From positions 17,464 to 81,463 of the forward strand of contig JABGYH010000006.1 of NCBI GenBank assembly GCA_018675335.1: a stretch of DNA of 64,000 bases, given 5' to 3'. The notes under the pieces are model-generated. The model was not told the origin of the DNA. It searched no databases and saw nothing but the letters and a program-made list of their open reading frames with translations. A program made the position numbers and the translations under genes. The stretch is from Candidatus Woesearchaeota archaeon. GTDB lineage: Archaea; Nanobdellota; Nanobdellia; Woesearchaeales; UBA11576. Below, in pieces: positions 5,099-46,300 of the stretch (positions within the stretch are counted from its first letter, which is position 1; each line of letters starts with the position of its first letter).

Positions 5099-5812
5099 AT
5101 GAAAATATCCATAGTAATTCCCGCATATAATGAAGAAAAAAGAATAGGAAATTCATTAAAAAAAATAATCAAATTTTGCAATAAAAATTTGACAGATTAT
5201 GAATTAATCATAGTGAATGACTTCTCAAAAGACAATACATTAGAAATAATAAACAAAAACAAAAACAAAAAAACAAAAGTTCTAAAAAATAAAAAAAATA
5301 AAGGAAAAGGTTATACTGTGAAAAGAGGTATTTTAAATGCAAAATACCCTCTAGTCCTATTTTCAGATAGTGATCTTGCAACACCTATTGAAGAAATTTT
5401 AAAAATGCTCAAATACATCCCAAAATATGATATTATTATTGCATCCAGAAACCTAAAAAAGTCCGATGTAAGAGTCAAACAATCTTGGTATCGTCAAATA
5501 ATGGGTAAAACATTTCCAATTATTGTTAATATGCTAGCAGTTCCAGGAATTCGTGATACTCAATGTGGATTTAAATTATTCAAAACAGATCTAGCAAAAA
5601 AAATTGTATCAAAGCAAACAATTAATAGATGGGCTTTTGATGTAGAATTATTATTTATCGCAAGAAAAATGAATCTAAAAATAAAAGAAGTCCCAATTAT
5701 TTGGATCGATAAAGAAGGAAGCACAATAACCAACCCCCTCCGAGACGCAACAAAAATGCTAAAAGATGTTATAAAAATCCAATTAAATAATTTCAAAGGA
5801 AAATATGATTAA
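5099..5812 (+). CDS. GT2 family polyprenyl-phosphate sugar synthase (Dpm1/GtrB/CsbB-like)
   Basis: 'ISIVIPAYNEE...IVNDFSKDNT...FSDSDLATP...TQCGFKLF' gives GT2 DxD/DAD-type motifs. Length 237 aa. Confidence 0.7.
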   Translation: MKISIVIPAYNEEKRIGNSLKKIIKFCNKNLTDYELIIVNDFSKDNTLEIINKNKNKKTKVLKNKKNKGKGYTVKRGILNAKYPLVLFSDSDLATPIEEILKMLKYIPKYDIIIASRNLKKSDVRVKQSWYRQIMGKTFPIIVNMLAVPGIRDTQCGFKLFKTDLAKKIVSKQTINRWAFDVELLFIARKMNLKIKEVPIIWIDKEGSTITNPLRDATKMLKDVIKIQLNNFKGKYD

Positions 5813-6522: not shown

Positions 6523-8422
6523 TGTTTACTCCTCGCATCTTTTGTTTTGTTAATAAAATAAGTTTATAAACTGATTGATCGGGTTTCATTTGTAACGCAA
6601 AATTAAATGCAAATAATGCCTCCTCATATTCACCTAAATAAAAATTAGCAATTCCTAAGTTATTCCACGACTCAAATGAAGAATTATCTAATTTAATTGC
6701 TTGATGAAAAAAATATTTAGCTGAGTTATAATCACCCATTTTCAATTTGTTTATTCCTAAAAATGATTTAGAATTAGAAAAATCTCTTTTAAGAACTAAA
6801 TATACAGGATCTTTTGATTCATTATGACTTATCAAATAATTAGCACTATAATATTCATAATCTAAATCAACATTCAAAGTAGACAAATTATTAATTTGAA
6901 AAATAATGCCCCTAATAGAATAAGTTTTATTTTCAACAGATAAATTATTAAAAGTGGAAAACAAAACATAATTAGTATCTAATTTAGCAATTAAATTATT
7001 AAATATATCATCAACACTCAAATAGTTTTCATTTGATAAAATAATATTAAATTTAGATTCAAGTTGTTTTAAATAAACCTTTGATCCAAACATATTTATA
7101 TGAATGATCTCAGTATTAACAAATTTATTATCAACATACTTTAAATACCAAAAAATGGGCAAAGTTACATCACTATCGGTAAACAAAACATTTTTTTCAG
7201 ACGTAATACTATAAATAGTATTATCAACATCTAATCCATACCAATAAGGCAAATAATTATCAGATTCATTATTAATTTGAAAATTACTATAAAATTGAAA
7301 ACATATCAAACAAAAAACAATTAAAAAAATAAAACCTTTAATTAATTTATTTAACTTATAATTTAATAAAAAATAAAAGCCATAAAGTATAATAAATAAA
7401 ACAAAAAAATAAGAGCTTAAAAAAAATATATCAATTCCTTTAATTTCAGTACCTATTTTATAAGTTATATTAAATAACAAATTAACTAAAAGAACTAATA
7501 AAAAAAAAATTCCTAATTTTATATCTTTTCTTTTAAAAAATAAATAAAAAACACCTAAAAAAATAAATAAACTTAACAAACCAAATTGAAAAAACAAATC
7601 ATTTACAAAAAAGGATATATAAGACGAAACTTGAGAATAATCTGCAGACCCCATCAACGGCCTAAATTGTTTTGCAGTTACATGATCTAAAAAATTACTA
7701 AATAATTCTGGATTACCCCAATCCATTTCAGGATTCATTGAAGATCTAATTGACAAATATAAATAGGGAGTAAGGCCAATAAGAAAAATTAAAAAACAAA
7801 TAATAATTATTTTAATATTAAACATTTTTTTATTTATTTTTAAATTAAAAATATTAAATCCTTGTTTTTTAATAAATATAAAATATAAAAATCCAGGAGC
7901 AAACAAAACATAAGTAAGATGATTTGTTAAACAAAGACCGTAGGTAAAACAAAAAAAATATAACCATTTATTATCTCCTAATTTTTCAAATTTTAACAAA
8001 AAATAAAAAGATACACTCAATAAAAAAATACCTAAAGTATGAACCTCGGCAATCACTGCTTGACTCCAAAATGTTTTAGAAAAAGAAAAAAGAAAAACTG
8101 CTAATAACGAAATTAATTTATTTTTAGATAAAATTAAAGCAGATAAAAATATGAAAATAGCAGCTAAACTTCCAAAAAATGCAGACATTAAATTAATCCT
8201 AAATCCCTGAGTTCCTAAAGGAATATAAGAAAACACATGCCCTAACATAGTATGCAAAGGATATCCTGTTGGGTGCGCTATTCCCAAAGTTATTGCAGCA
8301 GTTGAAAGTTCAACTGAATCTTCCCATTCAATAATTGGATTTAAAGTAATAAAATAAATTGAAAAGGTTAAAAAAAAAACAAATACAACCATAAAATAAG
8401 TATTTAAATATTTATTAACCAT
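6509..8422 (-). CDS. DUF2723/TMEM260-like GT-C membrane glycosyltransferase candidate with C-terminal TPR repeats
   Basis: N-terminal 'LGIAHPTGYPLHTMLGHVF' resembles the DUF2723 signature. About 11 TM helices. C-terminal 'YNSAKYFFHQAIKLDNSSFESWNNLGIANFYLGEYEEALFAFNFALQMKP' is TPR-like. Overlaps the upstream GT2 by 14 nt. Confidence 0.45.
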   Translation of the reverse strand: MVNKYLNTYFMVVFVFFLTFSIYFITLNPIIEWEDSVELSTAAITLGIAHPTGYPLHTMLGHVFSYIPLGTQGFRINLMSAFFGSLAAIFIFLSALILSKNKLISLLAVFLFSFSKTFWSQAVIAEVHTLGIFLLSVSFYFLLKFEKLGDNKWLYFFCFTYGLCLTNHLTYVLFAPGFLYFIFIKKQGFNIFNLKINKKMFNIKIIIICFLIFLIGLTPYLYLSIRSSMNPEMDWGNPELFSNFLDHVTAKQFRPLMGSADYSQVSSYISFFVNDLFFQFGLLSLFIFLGVFYLFFKRKDIKLGIFFLLVLLVNLLFNITYKIGTEIKGIDIFFLSSYFFVLFIILYGFYFLLNYKLNKLIKGFIFLIVFCLICFQFYSNFQINNESDNYLPYWYGLDVDNTIYSITSEKNVLFTDSDVTLPIFWYLKYVDNKFVNTEIIHINMFGSKVYLKQLESKFNIILSNENYLSVDDIFNNLIAKLDTNYVLFSTFNNLSVENKTYSIRGIIFQINNLSTLNVDLDYEYYSANYLISHNESKDPVYLVLKRDFSNSKSFLGINKLKMGDYNSAKYFFHQAIKLDNSSFESWNNLGIANFYLGEYEEALFAFNFALQMKPDQSVYKLILLTKQKMRGVNNGSS

Positions 8423-19342: not shown

Positions 19343-19771
19343 TTAAAAATTTCCTGTATGCCCAAATTTTCCATCTCCCCTATCAGTTTGCTCAAGAGTT
19401 TCGGTGTCTACTAGTGTTGCGCTAACAACTGGTTGTATCAGCATTTGTGCAATTCTCATTCCGATTTCAACTTTAAAATCTTCTTTACTTAAATTATACA
19501 AAATTACTCCTATTTCTCCACGATAACTTGAATCAATTACCCCACCCATTGATTTTATTGAATATTTTGCAGCCATCCCAGATCGATCCCAAATTAAACC
19601 AACATAACCTTCAGGTATTGCAAGTTTTATTCCAGTTTTTATAATTTCTTTTTGTCCTGCAAGAATAATTTTTTCTTCGGTACTTCGAAGATCAAATCCC
19701 GCATCACCCGGACGAGCATAAACTGGACTGGGATGATCTTTAGAAAGTTTATTAATTTTAACCTCAACCAT
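19343..19771 (-). CDS. dut: dUTP diphosphatase (trimeric dUTPase)
   Basis: 'DRSGMAAKYSI', 'GVIDSSYRGEIGVILYN' and 'RIAQMLIQPV' dUTPase motifs. Start is taken at 'MVEVKINK', which has an AAGAGGT RBS. Confidence 0.8.
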   Translation of the reverse strand: MVEVKINKLSKDHPSPVYARPGDAGFDLRSTEEKIILAGQKEIIKTGIKLAIPEGYVGLIWDRSGMAAKYSIKSMGGVIDSSYRGEIGVILYNLSKEDFKVEIGMRIAQMLIQPVVSATLVDTETLEQTDRGDGKFGHTGNF

Positions 19772-19804
19772 TTTTACCTCTTTTTTTAAAAAAAAACTCA
19801 ATAA

Positions 19805-20530
19805 TTAAATGCCTCGAATTAAAACTTCATCAAAAAACTCTTTTATTGAATTTGACATTGATTCTAATTCTTCAGGAGTATAAGGACAACTTTTTTTGTA
19901 TTCTTCATTTAAAACTTTTGCATCAAAATTAAATTGTTGCAACACATATCGTTTAGATCCAGATAACCATTCACCAATCTTAATAATATCTTCTTTATTT
20001 ATGAACTCTTTAACAACTGTTGTTCTAAATTCATATGGTAGATTACTTTGACGTATTATTTCAACACTTTCAATAATTGCATCTTTTCGAAGTGTTGTAT
20101 TTACTACCAATTCATATTTTTCAATTGGTGCTTTAATATCCATTGCGATAAAATCAATCAATCTTGAGTCTATCAAGTCTTTTAACATTTCAGGATTAGT
20201 TCCATTAGTATCTAATTTTACTAAAAGCCCTAAATTCTTAATTTTTCGAATAAGCGCAGGTAATTGAGGGTATAATGTTGGCTCTCCACCAGTTATACAA
20301 ACTCCATCAACATATTTTTTGTGTTTTTCCATAATTTCCAAAAAGTCTTCTTCAGTTAAATCTGCGGCATTTGAAACTAACTCAGGCAATACTAGTTCAG
20401 GATTATGACAATAATGGCACCTAAAATTGCACCCCCCCAAAAATATTGTTGAAACAAGCTTTCCAGGGTAATCGATTAATGAAGTTTTTTGAATTCCTTT
20501 TATCATTTTTTTATCACAAAATATATTCAA
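19805..20530 (-). CDS. nrdG: Anaerobic ribonucleoside-triphosphate reductase activating protein (radical SAM)
   Basis: 'GGCNFRCHYCHNPE' CxxxCxxC radical-SAM motif. NrdG-like length. Adjacent to nrdD. Confidence 0.85.
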   Translation of the reverse strand: MNIFCDKKMIKGIQKTSLIDYPGKLVSTIFLGGCNFRCHYCHNPELVLPELVSNAADLTEEDFLEIMEKHKKYVDGVCITGGEPTLYPQLPALIRKIKNLGLLVKLDTNGTNPEMLKDLIDSRLIDFIAMDIKAPIEKYELVVNTTLRKDAIIESVEIIRQSNLPYEFRTTVVKEFINKEDIIKIGEWLSGSKRYVLQQFNFDAKVLNEEYKKSCPYTPEELESMSNSIKEFFDEVLIRGI

Positions 20531-20772
20531 AGTAGATTTGTTTTTATGTATTTCGGGTCTGTGATTTATATTTCAACAACAAACCACCCAAATCAATAAT
20601 TAAAACCACACTACAAAATAATAACGCAAACAATTTATACAAACCAAGCATATCCAAATACTAAGAATATACCTAAATCAAATAACACCCATCAAAAATA
20701 AATAAAATATAAAAAAAATAGAAAGAAAATATAAAAAAAGTTAATAGAAAAAAATTTTAAATTATTTCAAAT

Positions 20773-20985
20773 TTATTGTGTCGTAATCAAATTTGCTCTT
20801 TCGAATTGTGTTGCAGGCAAACCACGATTTCCATGTTTACTACAAACACTGCAACTCTCATCAAATTCAACACGTGCTTTAAATTCTTCTTTTTTACCCA
20901 CATTCCAATTAGCAATAGGTCTATGATATCCAACTACTCTACTGTACACTTCACATCTTCTGCCACACTTAGCCATTTTATTCAC
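20773..20985 (-). CDS. Stand-alone glycyl-radical domain peptide of class III RNR, encoded separately from the NrdD catalytic subunit
   Basis: 'KCGRRCEVYSRVVGYHRPIANWNVGKKEEFKARVEF' matches the NrdD C-terminal motif CxxC...RV(C/V)GY..RP...WN.GK..E...R. Own RBS 'AGAGGTGAATAAA ATG' before the second Met (probable start at 20976). Separated from nrdD by 190 bp of non-coding sequence. Confidence 0.6.
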   Translation of the reverse strand: MNKMAKCGRRCEVYSRVVGYHRPIANWNVGKKEEFKARVEFDESCSVCSKHGNRGLPATQFERANLITTQ

Positions 20986-21176: not shown

Positions 21177-23231
21177 CTATTCTGGACCATGTTCATTAAC
21201 AAAATTAACTCCTGCACTTTCAACACTTATTGGTGCTTGTTCCACAACTTCCGAAGCTTCACTTTCTTGCATTTCATAAGGGCAAGTTTCATGTTTGCCA
21301 GGAATATATCCATGATCAGGACATACACTAAATGTAGGAGTTATCGTAAAGTATGGCAACCTAAAATTATACGCAATTCTTTTTACTAATTGTTTACAAG
21401 TTTCCGCATCACTAACTCGCTCGCCCAGGAATGCATGAAAAACAGTTCCCCCAGTATACGCGGCTTGCAAATCATCTTGCATTTCTAATGCTTCAAAAAT
21501 ATCTCGCGTATAATCTACAGGCAATTGAGTTGAATTAGTATAATATGGTGTATCTTCTCCAGCACTAAGAATATCTGGAAATCGCTTCTTATCTGCTTTT
21601 GCCAATCTATAACTGGTACCTTCTGCAGGAGTTGCTTCTAAATTGTATAAATTTCCGGTTTCTTCTTGAAATTCAGATAATTTTGACTTCATAAAATGAA
21701 TTATTTCTTTAGCCATAATTACTCCTTCTTTACTAGCAATATTTTTACCAATAAAGTTTAACAAAGATTCATTCATCCCATTAAGACCAATTGTTGCAAA
21801 GTGATTATTAAACGTGCCTAAATATCTTTTAGTGAATGGAAATAAACCTTTATCCAAACTACTTGAAACTACTTTTCTTTTAATTTCTAAAGATTCCTTT
21901 GCCAGTTCCATAAGTCGCGCAAGTCTTTCAAAATAATCTTCTTTTGAACTTGCAAGATAACCTACTCGAGCAAGATTCATAGTAACAACGCCAATACTCC
22001 CAGTCATTTCTGCAGCACCAAAAAGTCCACCACCTTTATTTCTCAAATCTCTCAGATCCATTTGTAATCTACAACACATACTGCGCACATCACCAGGATT
22101 TAATTCAGAATTAATAAAGTTTTGAAAATAAGGAATCCCATACTTTGCAGTCATTTCAAAAAGAAGAGTTGCATTTTCACTATCCCAATCAAAATCTTCA
22201 GTTATGTTATATGTTGGAATTGGAAATGTAAATATTCTCCCACTAGCATCCCCTTCAATCATACACTCCATAAATGCTTTGTTAATCAAATCCATTTCTT
22301 TTTGGCAATCACCAAAAGTAAAATCTGCTTCTTTTCCACCAATAATTGCAGGATTATTTTTTAAGTCAGGAGGACAAACCCAATCAAGTGTTAAATTAAT
22401 AAATGGAGTTTGTGTTCCCCATCTGCTAGGTGTTGCAATATTAAATAAGAATCTCTGCATTTGTTGTTTAACTTGTTTATAAGTTAAGTTATCAACTTTA
22501 ATAAATGGTGCAAGATATGTATCAAACGAAGAAAATGCTTGTGCACCCGCCCACTCATTTTGTAACGTACCTAAGAAATTTACCATCTGACCAATAATTG
22601 TATCAAAATGTTTTGGAGGAACTGTTTGCAATTTTCCCGCAACACCACCAAATCCTTCTGCAATTAATTGTCTTAAACTCCAACCAGCACAATATCCACT
22701 AAACATGGATAAGTCATGAATATGAAAATCACCCTCAATATGTGAGTCTCGAATTTCTTTTGGATAAATATGATTCAACCAATAATTTGCAGTTATTTTT
22801 CCTGAAATATTAAGAATAAGGCCGCCAATCGAATATCCAACATTAGCATTTTCATTTACTCTCCAATCACTTCGACTCAAATATTCATTCATTGTTTCTT
22901 CAACATTAATCAAAACTTCACTATCTTCACGAGATAATCTTCGTTTTTCTCTGTACAAAATAAATGACTTTGAAACATCCGCATGACCTTCTTCAATTAG
23001 AACTTTTTCAATTAAATCTTGAATATTTTCAACTGTCGGCAGGGACCCACCTTTAAAAAAAATATTAAGAATCGCAGTAACTCTTTTTGTTAAAGCTTTT
23101 GCTAAATCATAATTATCTAGATTATTAGCCTTCATAGATTTAAAAATAGCACCAGTTATCTTTTCCTCATCAAATAGAACTAATTCACCATCTCTTTTTC
23201 TTACTCGTCGAATTTCTTTTAGATAATCCAT
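21177..23231 (-). CDS. nrdD: Anaerobic ribonucleoside-triphosphate reductase catalytic subunit (class III), C-terminally truncated relative to canonical NrdD: lacks the glycyl-radical motif
   Basis: N-terminal ATP-cone ('VRKRDGELVLFDEEKITGAIFKSM'). Long NrdD core. C-terminus has half a Zn-ribbon 'CPDHGY...CPY' then an acidic tail, with no RVxGY motif. Confidence 0.9.
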   Translation of the reverse strand: MDYLKEIRRVRKRDGELVLFDEEKITGAIFKSMKANNLDNYDLAKALTKRVTAILNIFFKGGSLPTVENIQDLIEKVLIEEGHADVSKSFILYREKRRLSREDSEVLINVEETMNEYLSRSDWRVNENANVGYSIGGLILNISGKITANYWLNHIYPKEIRDSHIEGDFHIHDLSMFSGYCAGWSLRQLIAEGFGGVAGKLQTVPPKHFDTIIGQMVNFLGTLQNEWAGAQAFSSFDTYLAPFIKVDNLTYKQVKQQMQRFLFNIATPSRWGTQTPFINLTLDWVCPPDLKNNPAIIGGKEADFTFGDCQKEMDLINKAFMECMIEGDASGRIFTFPIPTYNITEDFDWDSENATLLFEMTAKYGIPYFQNFINSELNPGDVRSMCCRLQMDLRDLRNKGGGLFGAAEMTGSIGVVTMNLARVGYLASSKEDYFERLARLMELAKESLEIKRKVVSSSLDKGLFPFTKRYLGTFNNHFATIGLNGMNESLLNFIGKNIASKEGVIMAKEIIHFMKSKLSEFQEETGNLYNLEATPAEGTSYRLAKADKKRFPDILSAGEDTPYYTNSTQLPVDYTRDIFEALEMQDDLQAAYTGGTVFHAFLGERVSDAETCKQLVKRIAYNFRLPYFTITPTFSVCPDHGYIPGKHETCPYEMQESEASEVVEQAPISVESAGVNFVNEHGPE

Positions 23232-23320: not shown

Positions 23321-23761
23321 TCAAGAGAGTTTATTCAATTCCTTCTCAAAATCATCAATATTTGCAAACTCAAGATAAATTGATGCAAATCGCATATATC
23401 CAACTTTATCAATTTTCTTTAGTCGCTTTAAAACTGCTCGCCCGATGATTTTTGAAGCAATTTCATTCGCATCTTTTTTACGTATCTCAGATTCAATCTC
23501 CAAAGCAGCCTTTTCCAAAACTTCTGTTGAAACAGATCTTTTTTCACAAGCTGTTTGAAATCCTTTGAGTACTTTGTTGCGATCAAACTCTTCGCGAGTT
23601 CCGTCACGTTTTATTACCATTAATGTTGCAAGTTCTGCCCGTTCATAACTCGTAAATCGTCTTTCACATTTAAGACACTCCCGTCTTCTTCGAGTGTAGT
23701 CTTCATTATCTCTTTTATCAACAACTTTTGTATCTGATTGATTACAATACGGACATAACAT
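23321..23761 (-). CDS. nrdR: Transcriptional repressor NrdR (Zn-ribbon plus ATP-cone)
   Basis: 'MLCPYCNQSDTKVVDKRDNEDYTRRRRECLKCERRFTSYE' is the canonical NrdR N-terminal Zn-ribbon. An ATP-cone follows. Confidence 0.85.
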   Translation of the reverse strand: MLCPYCNQSDTKVVDKRDNEDYTRRRRECLKCERRFTSYERAELATLMVIKRDGTREEFDRNKVLKGFQTACEKRSVSTEVLEKAALEIESEIRKKDANEIASKIIGRAVLKRLKKIDKVGYMRFASIYLEFANIDDFEKELNKLS

Positions 23762-23873
23762 AATTTTTTACCAACATATTTTTTACACAAAAAAAGCTCA
23801 CAAAAATCAGCTAATTTTGAATAATTTTTAATTCTCAGCCCGCCTTAACCACTTTTATGGAAAAGACTTAAAC

Positions 23874-23921
23874 ACACAACATCTTGTGATGCCATTTTGA
23901 AGTAAACACAACATCTTGTGC
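23874..23921 (-). promoter_or_regulatory. Tandem NrdR-box-like palindromes (two 16-mers, 32 bp apart) upstream of nrdR
   Basis: 'ACACAACATCTTGTGA' at 23874-23889 and 'ACACAACATCTTGTGC' at 23906-23921. CACAA/TTGTG arms fit the ACAC...GTGT NrdR-box arms. Spacing is 32 bp, about 3 helical turns. Confidence 0.5.
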
Positions 23922-24295
23922 ATTAACCAAATAAGTAAAAATGATGATATTTAAACTTTTTTGTTTTTTAACAATAAAATTTTGTCATATATTTTAGAAA
24001 GAATATACTAGAGAAAGACACCATTTTACAATAGTTCAAAACAAAAAAAGGGCAAAATTCACTAAAAAAACCCTAAAATAAACAGAACAATAAAATAAAA
24101 TGGTAAAAGAACTTTTTAACCAAAAAAGGAGCGTAAAACAATCTTAAAAATGAATTTAATCAACCAATTTACTTATAAAAAAATACAAATAGAAACACAA
24201 AAAAAACACACACAAAAACACAAAAAAAATAAAATAAAATAAAATAACCACAACAGAAAAATATCAAAAATAAAACGCAAATTTAAACTTAGTAC

Positions 24296-34270: not shown

Positions 34271-36019
34271 ATGTGCGGAATAATAGGGTATATGGGCGAA
34301 GAAGCTGCACTCCCAATAATAATAGAAGGTTTACAAAAATTAGAATATAGAGGATATGATTCTTTTGGATTTGCAATAGAAAACGATTTACATATTCAAA
34401 CTCAAAAATTTATTGGATCCATAACTGAAAATAAAAGTTTAATTTCAAACATAACTGGTAACACAGGTATAGGTCATACAAGATGGGCGACACATGGACC
34501 AGTTTGTAAAAAAAATGCACACCCACACCTAAGTTCAAATAAAAAATTTATAATTGTCCACAATGGAATAATTGAAAATTTCGAAGAAATTAAATCAAAT
34601 CTTAACAAAAAAGGATTCGAATTTTATGGAGATACAGACACAGAAGTAATAGCAAAATTAATAGAAGAAAAATATAACCAATGTCAAAATGTCAAACAAG
34701 CAATTCAACAATCATTAGATTTAATTAAAGGTGCTTATGCAATTGCAGTAGTTAATGAAATAAATCCCAACAACATTTTTTTAGCTTGTAAAGATGCACC
34801 GTTAAAATTAGGGATATCTGATACTGGAATATATTTTGCTTCAGATCCAATAGGATTTTTACGCCACACAAATCAAGTAATAACTTTAGAAGACAATGAT
34901 TTCGTCGAGATCAATAATAAAACTTACACAATAACCAATAATGGAGAAGTTATTCAACGAAATATAAATAATATAGAATGGCAACAAAAAACCGCTGAAA
35001 AAAATGATTTTAATCATTTTATGTTAAAAGAAATTCATGAACAATCAAAAAATTTAAAAAATGTTTTTCAAAATTCAAATACCACAATTAATAATATTAA
35101 ACAACTACTAAAAAACGCAAGAAGAGTTTTAATAATTGGTTGTGGAACTGCATATCATGCAGGACTTGTTCTAAAAAATAAGTTACTCTCAAAAGGAATT
35201 ATTGCAGAATCAATAATTGCATCAGAGTTTGAACAATATAAAACGCTAACAAAAGATGATGTTATTGTTACTTTTTCTCAGAGTGGCGAAACTGCAGATC
35301 TTTTAGAAGTCCTAAAAAATATTAAAAAAGAAAAAAAGTGCAAAGTAATCACAATAACTAATGTAGTGCAATCAACAATAACTAGATTTAGTGATGAAGT
35401 TATATACCTCAATCAAGGACCTGAAATTGGCGTTGCATCAACAAAAGCATACACAGGAATGATTGCAGCAATCGAATTACTAATTTGTGAAAATCCTCTT
35501 GATTTCCAAACACAAATAATCAAGCAACAAGAAATAATAGCCCAAATAATTTCAAAGCAAAAAAAACAACTCAAAATTATTAGTGAAAAATTAGTCGCCG
35601 CACAAGATATTTATCTTATTGGTAGAGGGAAAAATTTAGTTACTGCTCTTGAAGGCGCGCTAAAAATCAAAGAAATTTCTTATATTCATTCTGAAGGAAT
35701 GGCTGCAGGAGAACTTAAACATGGAACGCTTGCATTAATTGAAAAAGGAGTTCCCGTAATAGTTATAGCCCCAACAGATGAGAAATTTGCAGAAACAATT
35801 TCAAATGCACTTGAAATAAAAAGCAGAGGTGGAAAAATTATTGGAATTAGTGACAAACCAAACAATGCATTTGATGAATTCATAGAAATTCCAAAAACTA
35901 AATTTCAAGAAATAACTACAATTATTCCATTGCAAATGATTGCATACAATCTTGCGATTAAAAAAGGATTCAATCCAGATAAACCAAGAAATCTTGCAAA
36001 AAGTGTAACAGTAAAATAA
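34271..36019 (+). CDS. glmS: Glutamine--fructose-6-phosphate aminotransferase (isomerising)
   Basis: 'MCGIIGY' N-terminal Cys nucleophile plus SIS domains. Start is taken at the ATG giving Met-Cys (GGTGA RBS), not the upstream GTG of the ORF track. Confidence 0.9.
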   Translation: MCGIIGYMGEEAALPIIIEGLQKLEYRGYDSFGFAIENDLHIQTQKFIGSITENKSLISNITGNTGIGHTRWATHGPVCKKNAHPHLSSNKKFIIVHNGIIENFEEIKSNLNKKGFEFYGDTDTEVIAKLIEEKYNQCQNVKQAIQQSLDLIKGAYAIAVVNEINPNNIFLACKDAPLKLGISDTGIYFASDPIGFLRHTNQVITLEDNDFVEINNKTYTITNNGEVIQRNINNIEWQQKTAEKNDFNHFMLKEIHEQSKNLKNVFQNSNTTINNIKQLLKNARRVLIIGCGTAYHAGLVLKNKLLSKGIIAESIIASEFEQYKTLTKDDVIVTFSQSGETADLLEVLKNIKKEKKCKVITITNVVQSTITRFSDEVIYLNQGPEIGVASTKAYTGMIAAIELLICENPLDFQTQIIKQQEIIAQIISKQKKQLKIISEKLVAAQDIYLIGRGKNLVTALEGALKIKEISYIHSEGMAAGELKHGTLALIEKGVPVIVIAPTDEKFAETISNALEIKSRGGKIIGISDKPNNAFDEFIEIPKTKFQEITTIIPLQMIAYNLAIKKGFNPDKPRNLAKSVTVK

Positions 36020-40069: not shown

Positions 40070-41011
40070 TCATCTCCTGCGTTTTCTAGACCTTGATTTA
40101 ACTTGACTATCCCTCGATTTAACTTGACCCAATTCTCGTTTAATTATAGTATCAGCTAACTCATCAAGAGATGGACTTGTTTGAGGAATGGGTGCAAAAA
40201 CAGTTTGAACTCCCACGTCTTCTAATTGCGAAAAAATTTCTAAAGGTTTGGGTTTTATCATAGGAGGTTTATGTCTAAAATCAAATAACGTTTGAGGATA
40301 TGCTAAAACAAAATAAACCAGTTTATGTTGAGGAAATAATTCTTGTAATGGACGAAAAACTCTTTCAATTGCAGTCCCAGTAGAATGCTCATTATCCCAC
40401 GCATTAATTCTAAAACGAGCTTTTGCAGATGCCTCCCCAATTAATAAATACTTTTGATTTTCAACATGGAGATATGCAAGCCCATCAAGTTCTGTTGTTT
40501 GAACACTATATGATTCTTGCAAATAAAATTCTGCAGGACTAGAACCATTACTTCTCAAAATAACAAATGATGTTGGACCATTATGTTTTAAAATAAATTG
40601 ACCATTAGACCTACAAACATAACCTCTTCCTCTTCCTTTTTTTAATTCAGAAATTACTCCTTTTTTAATTTCAGCAGATTCAGCACCTAATTGTTGTTGC
40701 ACATTAACAACTTCACCTAATGCATATTGCATCATAATTGATAAAACCCGCTCTCCTAAAAAGCCTTTCAAATTAGATTTAAATTCATCACCGCTAATAC
40801 CATTAAGCTCTTTTTTTCTTTGCCAAAGAATTAAATCTGACCTCCCATATAATAATGCAGAAATAGGTCCCATATGCGCATAACGAGAATAACCCCCATC
40901 TAAATTGGCAATTCTCAAGTCAGGATTTAAAACAACCTGAACTCCATGATAATATTTTCGAGAACGACTATGTCTAAAAACTCCTGGCGTAAACGCATCA
41001 AATGGATCCAT
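40070..41011 (-). CDS. Hypothetical protein with Ser/Arg/Lys-rich C-terminal tail
   Basis: 313 aa ending 'QVKSRDSQVKSRSRKRRR'. No motif assigned. Confidence 0.3.
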   Translation of the reverse strand: MDPFDAFTPGVFRHSRSRKYYHGVQVVLNPDLRIANLDGGYSRYAHMGPISALLYGRSDLILWQRKKELNGISGDEFKSNLKGFLGERVLSIMMQYALGEVVNVQQQLGAESAEIKKGVISELKKGRGRGYVCRSNGQFILKHNGPTSFVILRSNGSSPAEFYLQESYSVQTTELDGLAYLHVENQKYLLIGEASAKARFRINAWDNEHSTGTAIERVFRPLQELFPQHKLVYFVLAYPQTLFDFRHKPPMIKPKPLEIFSQLEDVGVQTVFAPIPQTSPSLDELADTIIKRELGQVKSRDSQVKSRSRKRRR

Positions 41012-45529: not shown

Positions 45530-46300
45530 TTACCTTTTAGGCTTAGCCCCATCTGAACTCATAGACTCAGATTCTAAAGAATCAACATCCACAGATTCAG
45601 TTTTGGCTTTTGCTTTCTCTTTAAGTTCTTTGAATTTTTGCTTACTCTTTTTGAATAGTTCAGATCCGAGTGACTTTCCTTCTTCTTCTAATACTTCTTT
45701 AGCAGTTATAATTTGTTTTCTAACAACTTCGCTCCATTCTTGTAAAACTAAATCAACATTAGAAATTTTACCTCCCCAACCATCTAAAAATACCATATCA
45801 ACTAAACGATATTTACCTGGTTTTTTTGCGTGTACTCCTTCACCCGAATATCCTATTGTTAGAATAACTTGAGGTCGTGCATATTTGGGAATATTCAAAA
45901 GTTTGGTTATTTTATCTTCATCAAAAGCCCCAACCCATGCAGTTGAAAGTCCTTGATCAGTTGCTGCAACAATCATATTTTCTGATGCTGCCGCAATATT
46001 TTGTATTGAATATAATTTTTCTCCACGTATACCATAAAATCTTTCTGATTTTTTAGGTTCCGCACAAATAATAATATGAACTGGTGCTTCTTCCATCCAA
46101 AATTGTTTCATGCAAGCTTCAGCAACCGCTCTTCTTTTTTGTTTATTAGTAACTACAATAAATTTCCAATCTTGCAAATTTCCTGCAGACGGAGCCATAG
46201 AACCTGCCAATAAAATATTACCAACTTTTTCCCATTCAATTGGAGAATTAAGATATTTTCTACAAGTACGTCTCTTTTCTATTGCTTCAAATGTTTCCAT
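45530..46300 (-). CDS. Nitroreductase-family (NADH/FMN) oxidoreductase with charged C-terminal tail
   Basis: 'IEKRRTCRKYLNSPIEWEKVGNILLAGSMAPSAGNLQDWKFIVV' is the nitroreductase fold signature. About 60 aa Lys/Glu/Ser tail. Confidence 0.75.
   Translation of the reverse strand: METFEAIEKRRTCRKYLNSPIEWEKVGNILLAGSMAPSAGNLQDWKFIVVTNKQKRRAVAEACMKQFWMEEAPVHIIICAEPKKSERFYGIRGEKLYSIQNIAAASENMIVAATDQGLSTAWVGAFDEDKITKLLNIPKYARPQVILTIGYSGEGVHAKKPGKYRLVDMVFLDGWGGKISNVDLVLQEWSEVVRKQIITAKEVLEEEGKSLGSELFKKSKQKFKELKEKAKAKTESVDVDSLESESMSSDGAKPKR

Follow-up and report, generated by a model that had tools for sequence, protein, structure and literature searches.

A conserved pair of NrdR boxes beside the TATA box of an archaeal nrdR-nrdD locus: a putative operator in Woesearchaeota

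Genes of the nrdR-nrdD locus

The stretch of DNA analyzed in this work, referred to below as the window, comprises 64,000 nt of a Candidatus Woesearchaeota archaeon (assembly GCA_018675335.1, contig JABGYH010000006.1, positions 17,464-81,463 of the forward strand) and has a GC content of 29%. It codes for ribosomal protein S3Ae, ELP3 and a eukaryote-type ATP-dependent DNA ligase, and one of its proteins and MBT7903027.1, from a Candidatus Woesearchaeota MAG, are 100% identical; the host is thus recognized as an archaeon. The minus strand carries, in the direction of transcription, nrdR (23321-23761), a large nrdD ORF (21177-23231), a small ORF which supplies the glycyl-radical domain of NrdD (20773-20976), the activase gene nrdG (19805-20530) and the dUTPase gene dut (19343-19801). 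Upstream of nrdR lies an intergenic region of 534 bp (23762-24295; 23% GC), which is long for a small genome. Upstream of the nrdR promoter, its sense strand contains TTTTGTG and TAAAA repeats of low complexity. No convincing ORF was found within 23762-24295, and a scan of the whole window at Rfam gathering thresholds returned no RNA family, so that the long intergenic region is devoid of a known riboswitch or intron. A 10-mer, AAATGGTRTC, occurs a single time in the window (24017-24026, minus strand), approximately 62 nt upstream of the nrdR TATA box, and is kept at the equivalent place in two syntenic relatives, L162 (1897-1906) and L166 (121-130), while its surroundings have diverged among the three lineages.

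The product of the first gene, 146 amino acids in length, is NrdR by every sequence test, in agreement with the preliminary description of this DNA, in which it was called a textbook NrdR. Both of its domains are recognized by Pfam, i.e., the Zn-ribbon (Zn_ribbon_NrdR, PF22811, E=8.4e-15) and the ATP-cone (PF03477, E=6e-19), and the NrdR equivalog of NCBIfam, TIGR00244, is matched over its entire length (positions 1-147 of 147) with a score of 176.3 bits (cutoff, 124.65). The cysteines of the Zn-ribbon are arranged as C3-x2-C6 and C29-x2-C32. Full-length alignment to NrdRs of known structure gave E=5e-35 for the E. coli protein, the best match among the solved structures, and E=3e-31 for that of S. 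coelicolor, and the lysine and glutamate of the ATP-cone are conserved in this alignment. Cryo-EM of the S. coelicolor protein has shown that D15 and R17 read the bases and that the RRRR motif grips the backbone (PMC9110341); these residues are all kept in the archaeal protein (...KVVD15KR17DNEDYTRRRRECLKC...).

The gene next to nrdR codes for an NrdD with an ATP-cone, as had also been proposed, and Pfam and NCBIfam matches support this assignment. Its ORF of 684 codons comprises the ATP-cone and the catalytic barrel, lacks the glycyl-radical tail, and terminates in ...HETCPY, an acidic tail and a stop codon. Some 200 nt with stops in all frames separate it from the tail ORF, which is located in another frame, is preceded by a Shine-Dalgarno sequence of its own (GAGGTGA), and codes for the glycyl-radical domain in 67 amino acids (MAKCGRRCEVYSRVVGY...; MAKCGRRCEVYSRVVGYHRP...; MAKCG...EVYSRVVGY). 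In the window, in L162 (2637-5219) and in L166 (865-3105), the usual CPxCG zinc motif is interrupted by the break, the spacers of the latter two being 18-21 nt in length, and the zinc site would therefore have to assemble from both chains. A separate tail ORF also occurs in loci L011, L020, L037 and L047, where the large ORF keeps CPKC and is broken just after it, and probably in L017.

A protein search revealed 26 clusters of stand-alone tails of 40-72 amino acids, 24 of which begin with MAKCG, and such tails occur both in DPANN archaea and in bacterial-looking contigs. Among the latter, contigs L167-L170 contain a split nrdD with an NrdR box pair, at a spacing of 31-32 bp, just upstream of nrdD (2658-2705, 2568-2615, 2833-2879 and 289-335, respectively); no adjacent nrdR was found within these 10-kb loci. 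A split intein or an intron was rejected as the origin of the arrangement, as neither intein end residues nor an Rfam intron were found, and the individual Shine-Dalgarno sequence and conserved start of each ORF also oppose it. In the bacterial locus L066 (~6640-6910), an intact nrdD is accompanied by a downstream small ORF, which combines a CxxC...CxxC zinc ribbon with a second glycyl-radical motif (...TEVYSRVVGYIRPVAQWNGGK...) and may encode a spare-part protein of a class III reductase. According to a 2026 review (PMC13450708), formate lyases are the only enzymes for which spare-part glycyl-radical proteins are known. No description of the split-nrdD arrangement was found in the literature searched.

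The presence of a Shine-Dalgarno sequence and the lack of a conserved promoter in the spacer between nrdR and nrdD suggest that the two genes are co-transcribed, probably together with the tail ORF. A potential internal promoter of nrdD, TTTAAAAT, located 41 nt upstream of this gene, was discarded, since it is not conserved in L162 and L166, which have only the Shine-Dalgarno sequence there. The spacer of 266 nt from the tail ORF to nrdG (20507-20772, minus strand) is T-rich and contains several oligo-T runs followed by TATA-like elements; hence, the transcript may end in this spacer, and nrdG and dut may form a separate unit with a promoter of their own. A similar AT-rich spacer, 140 nt in length, precedes nrdG in L162. 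The preliminary description had placed dut together with nrdR in one regulon. Both dut and nrdG do follow nrdD, yet in view of the T-rich spacer their membership of the NrdR regulon is uncertain.

The NrdR box pair and its conservation

The site recognized by NrdR consists of two partially palindromic boxes of 16 bp, in which C4, A6, A8, T9, T11 and G13 are highly conserved, separated by a linker of 15-16 bp (PMC13584703; PMC9110341) or, alternatively, of 25-26 bp. Two near-identical 16-mers upstream of nrdR had been noted previously and their spacing likened to that of bacterial box pairs, and both observations hold. The proximal box occupies positions 23874-23889 (ACACAACATCTTGTGA on the plus strand, TCACAAGATGTTGTGT in the minus-strand sense orientation) and the distal box, the first in the direction of transcription, positions 23906-23921 (ACACAACATCTTGTGC on the plus strand, GCACAAGATGTTGTGT in the sense orientation). 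Their first 15 nt are identical, they are 32 bp apart from start to start, and the linker between them (23890-23905) measures 16 bp, within the canonical range of 15-16 bp (PMC13584703). All six conserved positions are present in both boxes, and the distal box matches the consensus at 13 of its 16 positions. The remainder of each 32-bp unit is unrelated in sequence, and the pair is thus not a recent tandem duplication. The boxes extend over 113-160 nt upstream of nrdR-nrdD, and their distance from the ATG (128-160 nt) exceeds that in most relatives (20-92 nt). The inner non-consensus bases do not differ between the boxes of a given genome, with two copies of CAAGATGTTG in the window and two of CAACATATTG in L162, and the two boxes (23874-23921 in the window; 2002-2049 in L162) appear to change together.

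A check of motif frequency, recommended in the preliminary description, gave results in the 64-kb window that depended on the pattern employed. No further copy of the 16-mer with up to 3 mismatches exists in the window, and the weighted box-pair score reaches 38 of a maximum of 44 at nrdR. The next best pair in the window, at position 35349 with a score of 33, lies inside the glmS coding region and is thus regarded as a chance occurrence. In contrast, the loose regular expression published for box pairs in a recent bacterial survey (PMC13584703) gives 12 matches in the window, where chance would account for 7.3, and was dropped as a criterion, being non-discriminating in AT-rich DNA. In first-order Markov simulations of the window, 7 of 100 runs contained two relaxed boxes at the correct spacing, and boxes as good as those observed arose at a mean of 1.4 per 64 kb. 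The full 16-mer criterion alone singles out the site upstream of nrdR within the window.

The distribution of the pair was surveyed by a scan for NrdR in one genome per GTDB species, in which the DPANN loci, labelled Woesearchaeota, Pacearchaeota, Nanoarchaeota and Micrarchaeota, showed 50-62% identity. A box pair with a score of at least 35, located within 300 nt upstream of nrdR and spaced 30-33 bp from start to start, was present in 16 of the 26 archaeal-labelled loci and in none of 686 control windows taken from the same loci. Together with the six key positions in both boxes, these counts argue for the earlier suggestion that the pair represents tandem operators upstream of an archaeal nrdR-nrdD operon. 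Pairs at a spacing of 31-32 bp, with linkers of 15-16 bp, recur upstream of nrdR in many DPANN genomes, and in at least 10 archaeal loci a reductase gene directly follows nrdR. The pooled archaeal boxes read aCACAAyATrTTGTGt, with C4 in 40 of 40 boxes and A6, T11 and G13 in 39 each. By sequence this archaeal logo is indistinguishable from the bacterial one, though the comparison is circular, in that the loci were selected by that logo and the score was built from the very consensus which is then recovered.

A metagenome search with NrdR returned nothing above 59% identity and allowed no fine-scale footprinting by that route. Closer syntenic relatives, L162-L166, were reached by means of the nrdD tail protein. 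L162-L165 represent another Woesearchaeota MAG, whose NrdR is 66% identical to that of the window, and L166 a third lineage (55%). The window, L162-L165 and L166 share the order S3Ae, ferredoxin, DUF1858, intergenic region, nrdR, nrdD, tail, nrdG and dut. A three-way alignment of the upstream DNA of the window, L162 and L166 shows that the TATA block, both boxes and the 16-bp linker are conserved, whereas the leader and the DNA further upstream diverge in sequence and in length; the block AAAAAGTTTAAATATCATCATTTTT around the TATA box is identical in L162. Four loci of the survey (L001, L017, L025 and L032) are titled 'uncultured Methanosarcinales archaeon', and their context is DPANN-like and AT-rich, with NrdRs that fall among Woesearchaeota sequences; the bacterial-labelled L004 and L066 likewise fall among archaeal NrdRs in a neighbour-joining tree. 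Either the taxonomic assignment of these MAGs may be unreliable, or the genes may have been transferred.

The core promoter and the predicted transcription start

An archaeal TATA box, TTTAAATA in the sense orientation (23948-23955, minus strand), lies 26 nt upstream of the distal box and is preceded by the purine-rich AAAAAG (23956-23961, minus strand), a BRE-like element and putative BRE. The interval to which the preliminary description had assigned the operators (23762-23930) covers both boxes but stops short of these promoter elements (23948-23961). The TATA box follows AAAAG or AAAGG in the window and in L009, L012, L014 and L162. Across the archaeal loci the position of the boxes is fixed relative to this element: in 14 of 19 loci, the distal box is preceded at 9-26 nt by a TATA-like sequence, compared to a background of 2.2% (P ~5e-20). 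The gap between the two measures 24-26 nt in L012, L014, L020, L036, L037, L047 and L162, 16-19 nt in six other loci, and 9-10 nt in two.

The distance from the TATA box to the start of transcription can be calibrated within the same genome. In many first genes of the window, TTTAAATA or TTTATAAA starts 30-31 nt upstream of the ATG, among others in those at 5099 (plus strand), 39472 (plus), 46522 (plus) and 38917 (minus), and in the ORFs 40070-41011 (minus) and 45530-46300 (minus). These first genes are without a Shine-Dalgarno sequence, while the operon-internal nrdD, tail ORF and dut have one of the GAGGT type. Leaderless mRNAs thus seem to be the rule in this genome. On the basis of the distance observed in the leaderless genes, the start of the nrdR transcript is predicted at 23924 (± ~3 nt), an A which follows a T and lies 31 nt from the TATA box, counted from the first base of the latter. 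The distal box would consequently extend from approximately +4 to +19 and the proximal box from approximately +36 to +51, and the mRNA would carry a 5' leader of approximately 163 nt, the rest of which (23762-23873) is poorly conserved. Such a leader would be unusual, most genes of this genome being leaderless. A leaderless promoter for nrdR itself was considered and rejected, in that the sequence in question, TAAAAAAT, starts 24 nt upstream of the ATG as opposed to the expected 30-31 nt. Scans for consensus sigma-70 promoters and intrinsic terminators yielded chance-level matches and are irrelevant for an archaeon.

Proposed regulation, alternatives and implications

The arrangement can be compared with several known systems. 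It resembles the nrdRJ operon of S. coelicolor (PDB 7P3F; PMC9110341), an autoregulated operon in which nrdR is first and is co-transcribed with a reductase gene, and in which two partial palindromes of 16 bp, with a linker of 15-16 bp, overlap the start region, which in the archaeon is predicted. The S. coelicolor NrdR binds its two boxes as a tetramer, and the two proteins have in common the Zn-ribbon, the ATP-cone, D15, R17 and RRRR. In contrast, nrdRJ codes for a class II reductase and is served by sigma-70 -35/-10 elements, whereas the Woesearchaeota operon combines a class III nrdD with BRE/TATA; its boxes, identified by sequence, lie wholly past the TATA box, and the predicted 163-nt leader comes after them. 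The E. coli nrdDG boxes (PMC12176259; PDB 9FVR and related) likewise serve an anaerobic reductase with an ATP-cone and conform to the same box logo, yet nrdR is unlinked to nrdDG in E. coli, and the boxes overlap bacterial promoter elements. In Halobacteria, operons of the type nrdR-nrdB-nrdA or nrdR-nrdA-nrdB (Lundin et al. 2010, PMC3019208) similarly place NrdR first in an archaeal RNR operon, albeit with class I reductases, as opposed to the class III enzyme in a member of the DPANN archaea, the Woesearchaeota. Operator positions relative to archaeal promoters were not described for the haloarchaeal operons in the literature examined.

Taken together, it is probable that the two 16-mers are the operator of the NrdR encoded immediately downstream, which would repress nrdR and the class III reductase by blocking the polymerase. 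We infer that an NrdR tetramer loaded with ATP and dATP would place two pairs of Zn-ribbons on the two boxes, three helical turns apart, and bend the DNA. Since the distal box would begin approximately 3 nt past the predicted start and the proximal box approximately 36 nt into the transcribed region, the bound repressor would fill the space that RNA polymerase needs once TBP and TFB are positioned on BRE/TATA, and either the recruitment of the polymerase or its escape from the promoter would be blocked. High dATP would thereby lead to repression of nrdR itself and of the class III ribonucleotide reductase presumed to be co-transcribed with it.

In archaea, repressors typically have their operators over or past the start site, a position that signifies occlusion of the polymerase; MDR1, LrpA and Phr, for example, bind in this manner and block RNA polymerase recruitment. 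The operator of the Woesearchaeota locus, past BRE/TATA and over the predicted start, is placed similarly, and occlusion of the polymerase rather than of TBP/TFB would be expected. Unlike NrdR, these proteins have unrelated folds and effectors, whereas NrdR is a Zn-ribbon protein that bends DNA at sites 32 bp apart and senses ATP/dATP.

The same observations can be accommodated in a wider and rather unlikely scenario, in which an old DPANN NrdR regulon, derived from one early acquisition or from exchange with CPR bacteria, had its operator re-engineered for eukaryote-like transcription and gained hairpin control at the RNA level. The fixation of the boxes just after the TATA box would then have served to block recruitment of the polymerase and would have forced the exceptional long leader, within which the transcribed boxes would form a hairpin as a second layer of control.

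[quoted passage not shown] The predicted leader (23759-23926, minus strand) indeed folds at -40.7 kcal/mol (z = -3.69), with none of 200 shuffled sequences as good; its main helix pairs the two boxes, and a T7 run is located 33-39 nt upstream of the nrdR ATG. However, two copies of a palindrome yield a box-box fold automatically. Moreover, positions 7 and 10 are non-complementary both in the window (G/G) and in L162 (C/A), without compensatory change, and the feature that is conserved is the NrdR logo, in an element which co-occurs with nrdR.

The boxes could also be an inactive relic of a bacterial nrdR-nrdD cassette, acquired horizontally and functionless on an archaeal promoter. The predominantly bacterial occurrence of NrdR, the arrival of the haloarchaeal nrdR operons by transfer (PMC3019208), and the presence of CPR bacteria among the closest NrdR relatives are in line with such an origin. 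Its probability is very low nonetheless, since the boxes have been retained in DPANN lineages with NrdRs of only 50-66% identity and completely diverged flanking sequences, their position is tied to the archaeal TATA box and not to -35/-10 elements, and all DNA-contact residues are kept in the protein.

Little credence is likewise given to the notion that NrdR binds the boxes but activates transcription, or acts only as a roadblock to elongation without preventing recruitment of the polymerase. The start site is a prediction, the proximal box would lie well inside the transcribed region, and the gap of down to 9-10 nt in some relatives implies a different geometry; still, NrdR is a repressor in all bacteria studied. 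Finally, a chance repeat in AT-rich intergenic DNA, or a site for a regulator other than NrdR, is scarcely credible, as the surplus of loose matches and the low-complexity, GC-poor surroundings weigh little against an exact 15-mer repeated at canonical spacing, with 6 of 6 key positions twice, nothing comparable elsewhere in the window, and conservation of the pair at the orthologous position.

The occurrence of NrdR in archaea has been viewed differently over the years. According to early work, as cited in bioRxiv 2025.03.28.645925, NrdR was absent from archaea; haloarchaeal nrdR-nrdAB operons were then described as acquired from bacteria by transfer (PMC3019208), NrdR was termed 'rare in archaea' (PMC9110341), 'a few archaeal RNRs' were reported to be under its control (PMC12051234), and it is now reported for 22% of archaeal genomes (PMC13584703). 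The view of NrdR as essentially a bacterial regulator, from which the preliminary description set out, is therefore out of date, given the haloarchaeal operons and the figure of 22%, and the novelty originally attached to the locus was overstated. The literature search, which did not extend to the 2026 MMBR review of NrdR (PMC13602944), did not find NrdR in connection with DPANN or, in a relevant manner, with archaeal TATA promoters, and it found no experimental study of NrdR in any archaeon. The only novelty, and a modest one, is that the operator keeps a conserved position with respect to the archaeal core promoter.

As to the history of the locus, horizontal acquisition of the whole regulon and an ancestral archaeal regulon had both been put forward, and the tree that was built favours neither. 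The nearest relatives of the window's NrdR are from DPANN archaea, with CPR bacteria almost as close. In neighbour-joining bootstraps, monophyly of the archaeal NrdRs was recovered in 0 of 100 replicates and a group of archaea and CPR in 17 of 100. The archaeal grouping of the first neighbour-joining tree was dropped on these grounds, and no claim is made in favour of either origin.

The locus leaves established knowledge of NrdR unchanged, and the archaeal occurrence of the regulator had already been published. In most bacteria NrdR is the master switch of dNTP supply, and its structure has been studied in detail, the experiments so far having all been conducted on bacterial promoters. The present locus and its relatives offer a conserved archaeal pair of promoter and operator, with two canonical boxes located 9-26 nt past a TATA box. 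It may thus provide a template for how a Zn-ribbon/ATP-cone repressor would interfere with the pre-initiation complex of TBP, TFB and RNA polymerase. It would also imply that DPANN archaea, in spite of their tiny genomes, keep tight control over dNTP synthesis, with ATP-cones on both the repressor and the enzyme.
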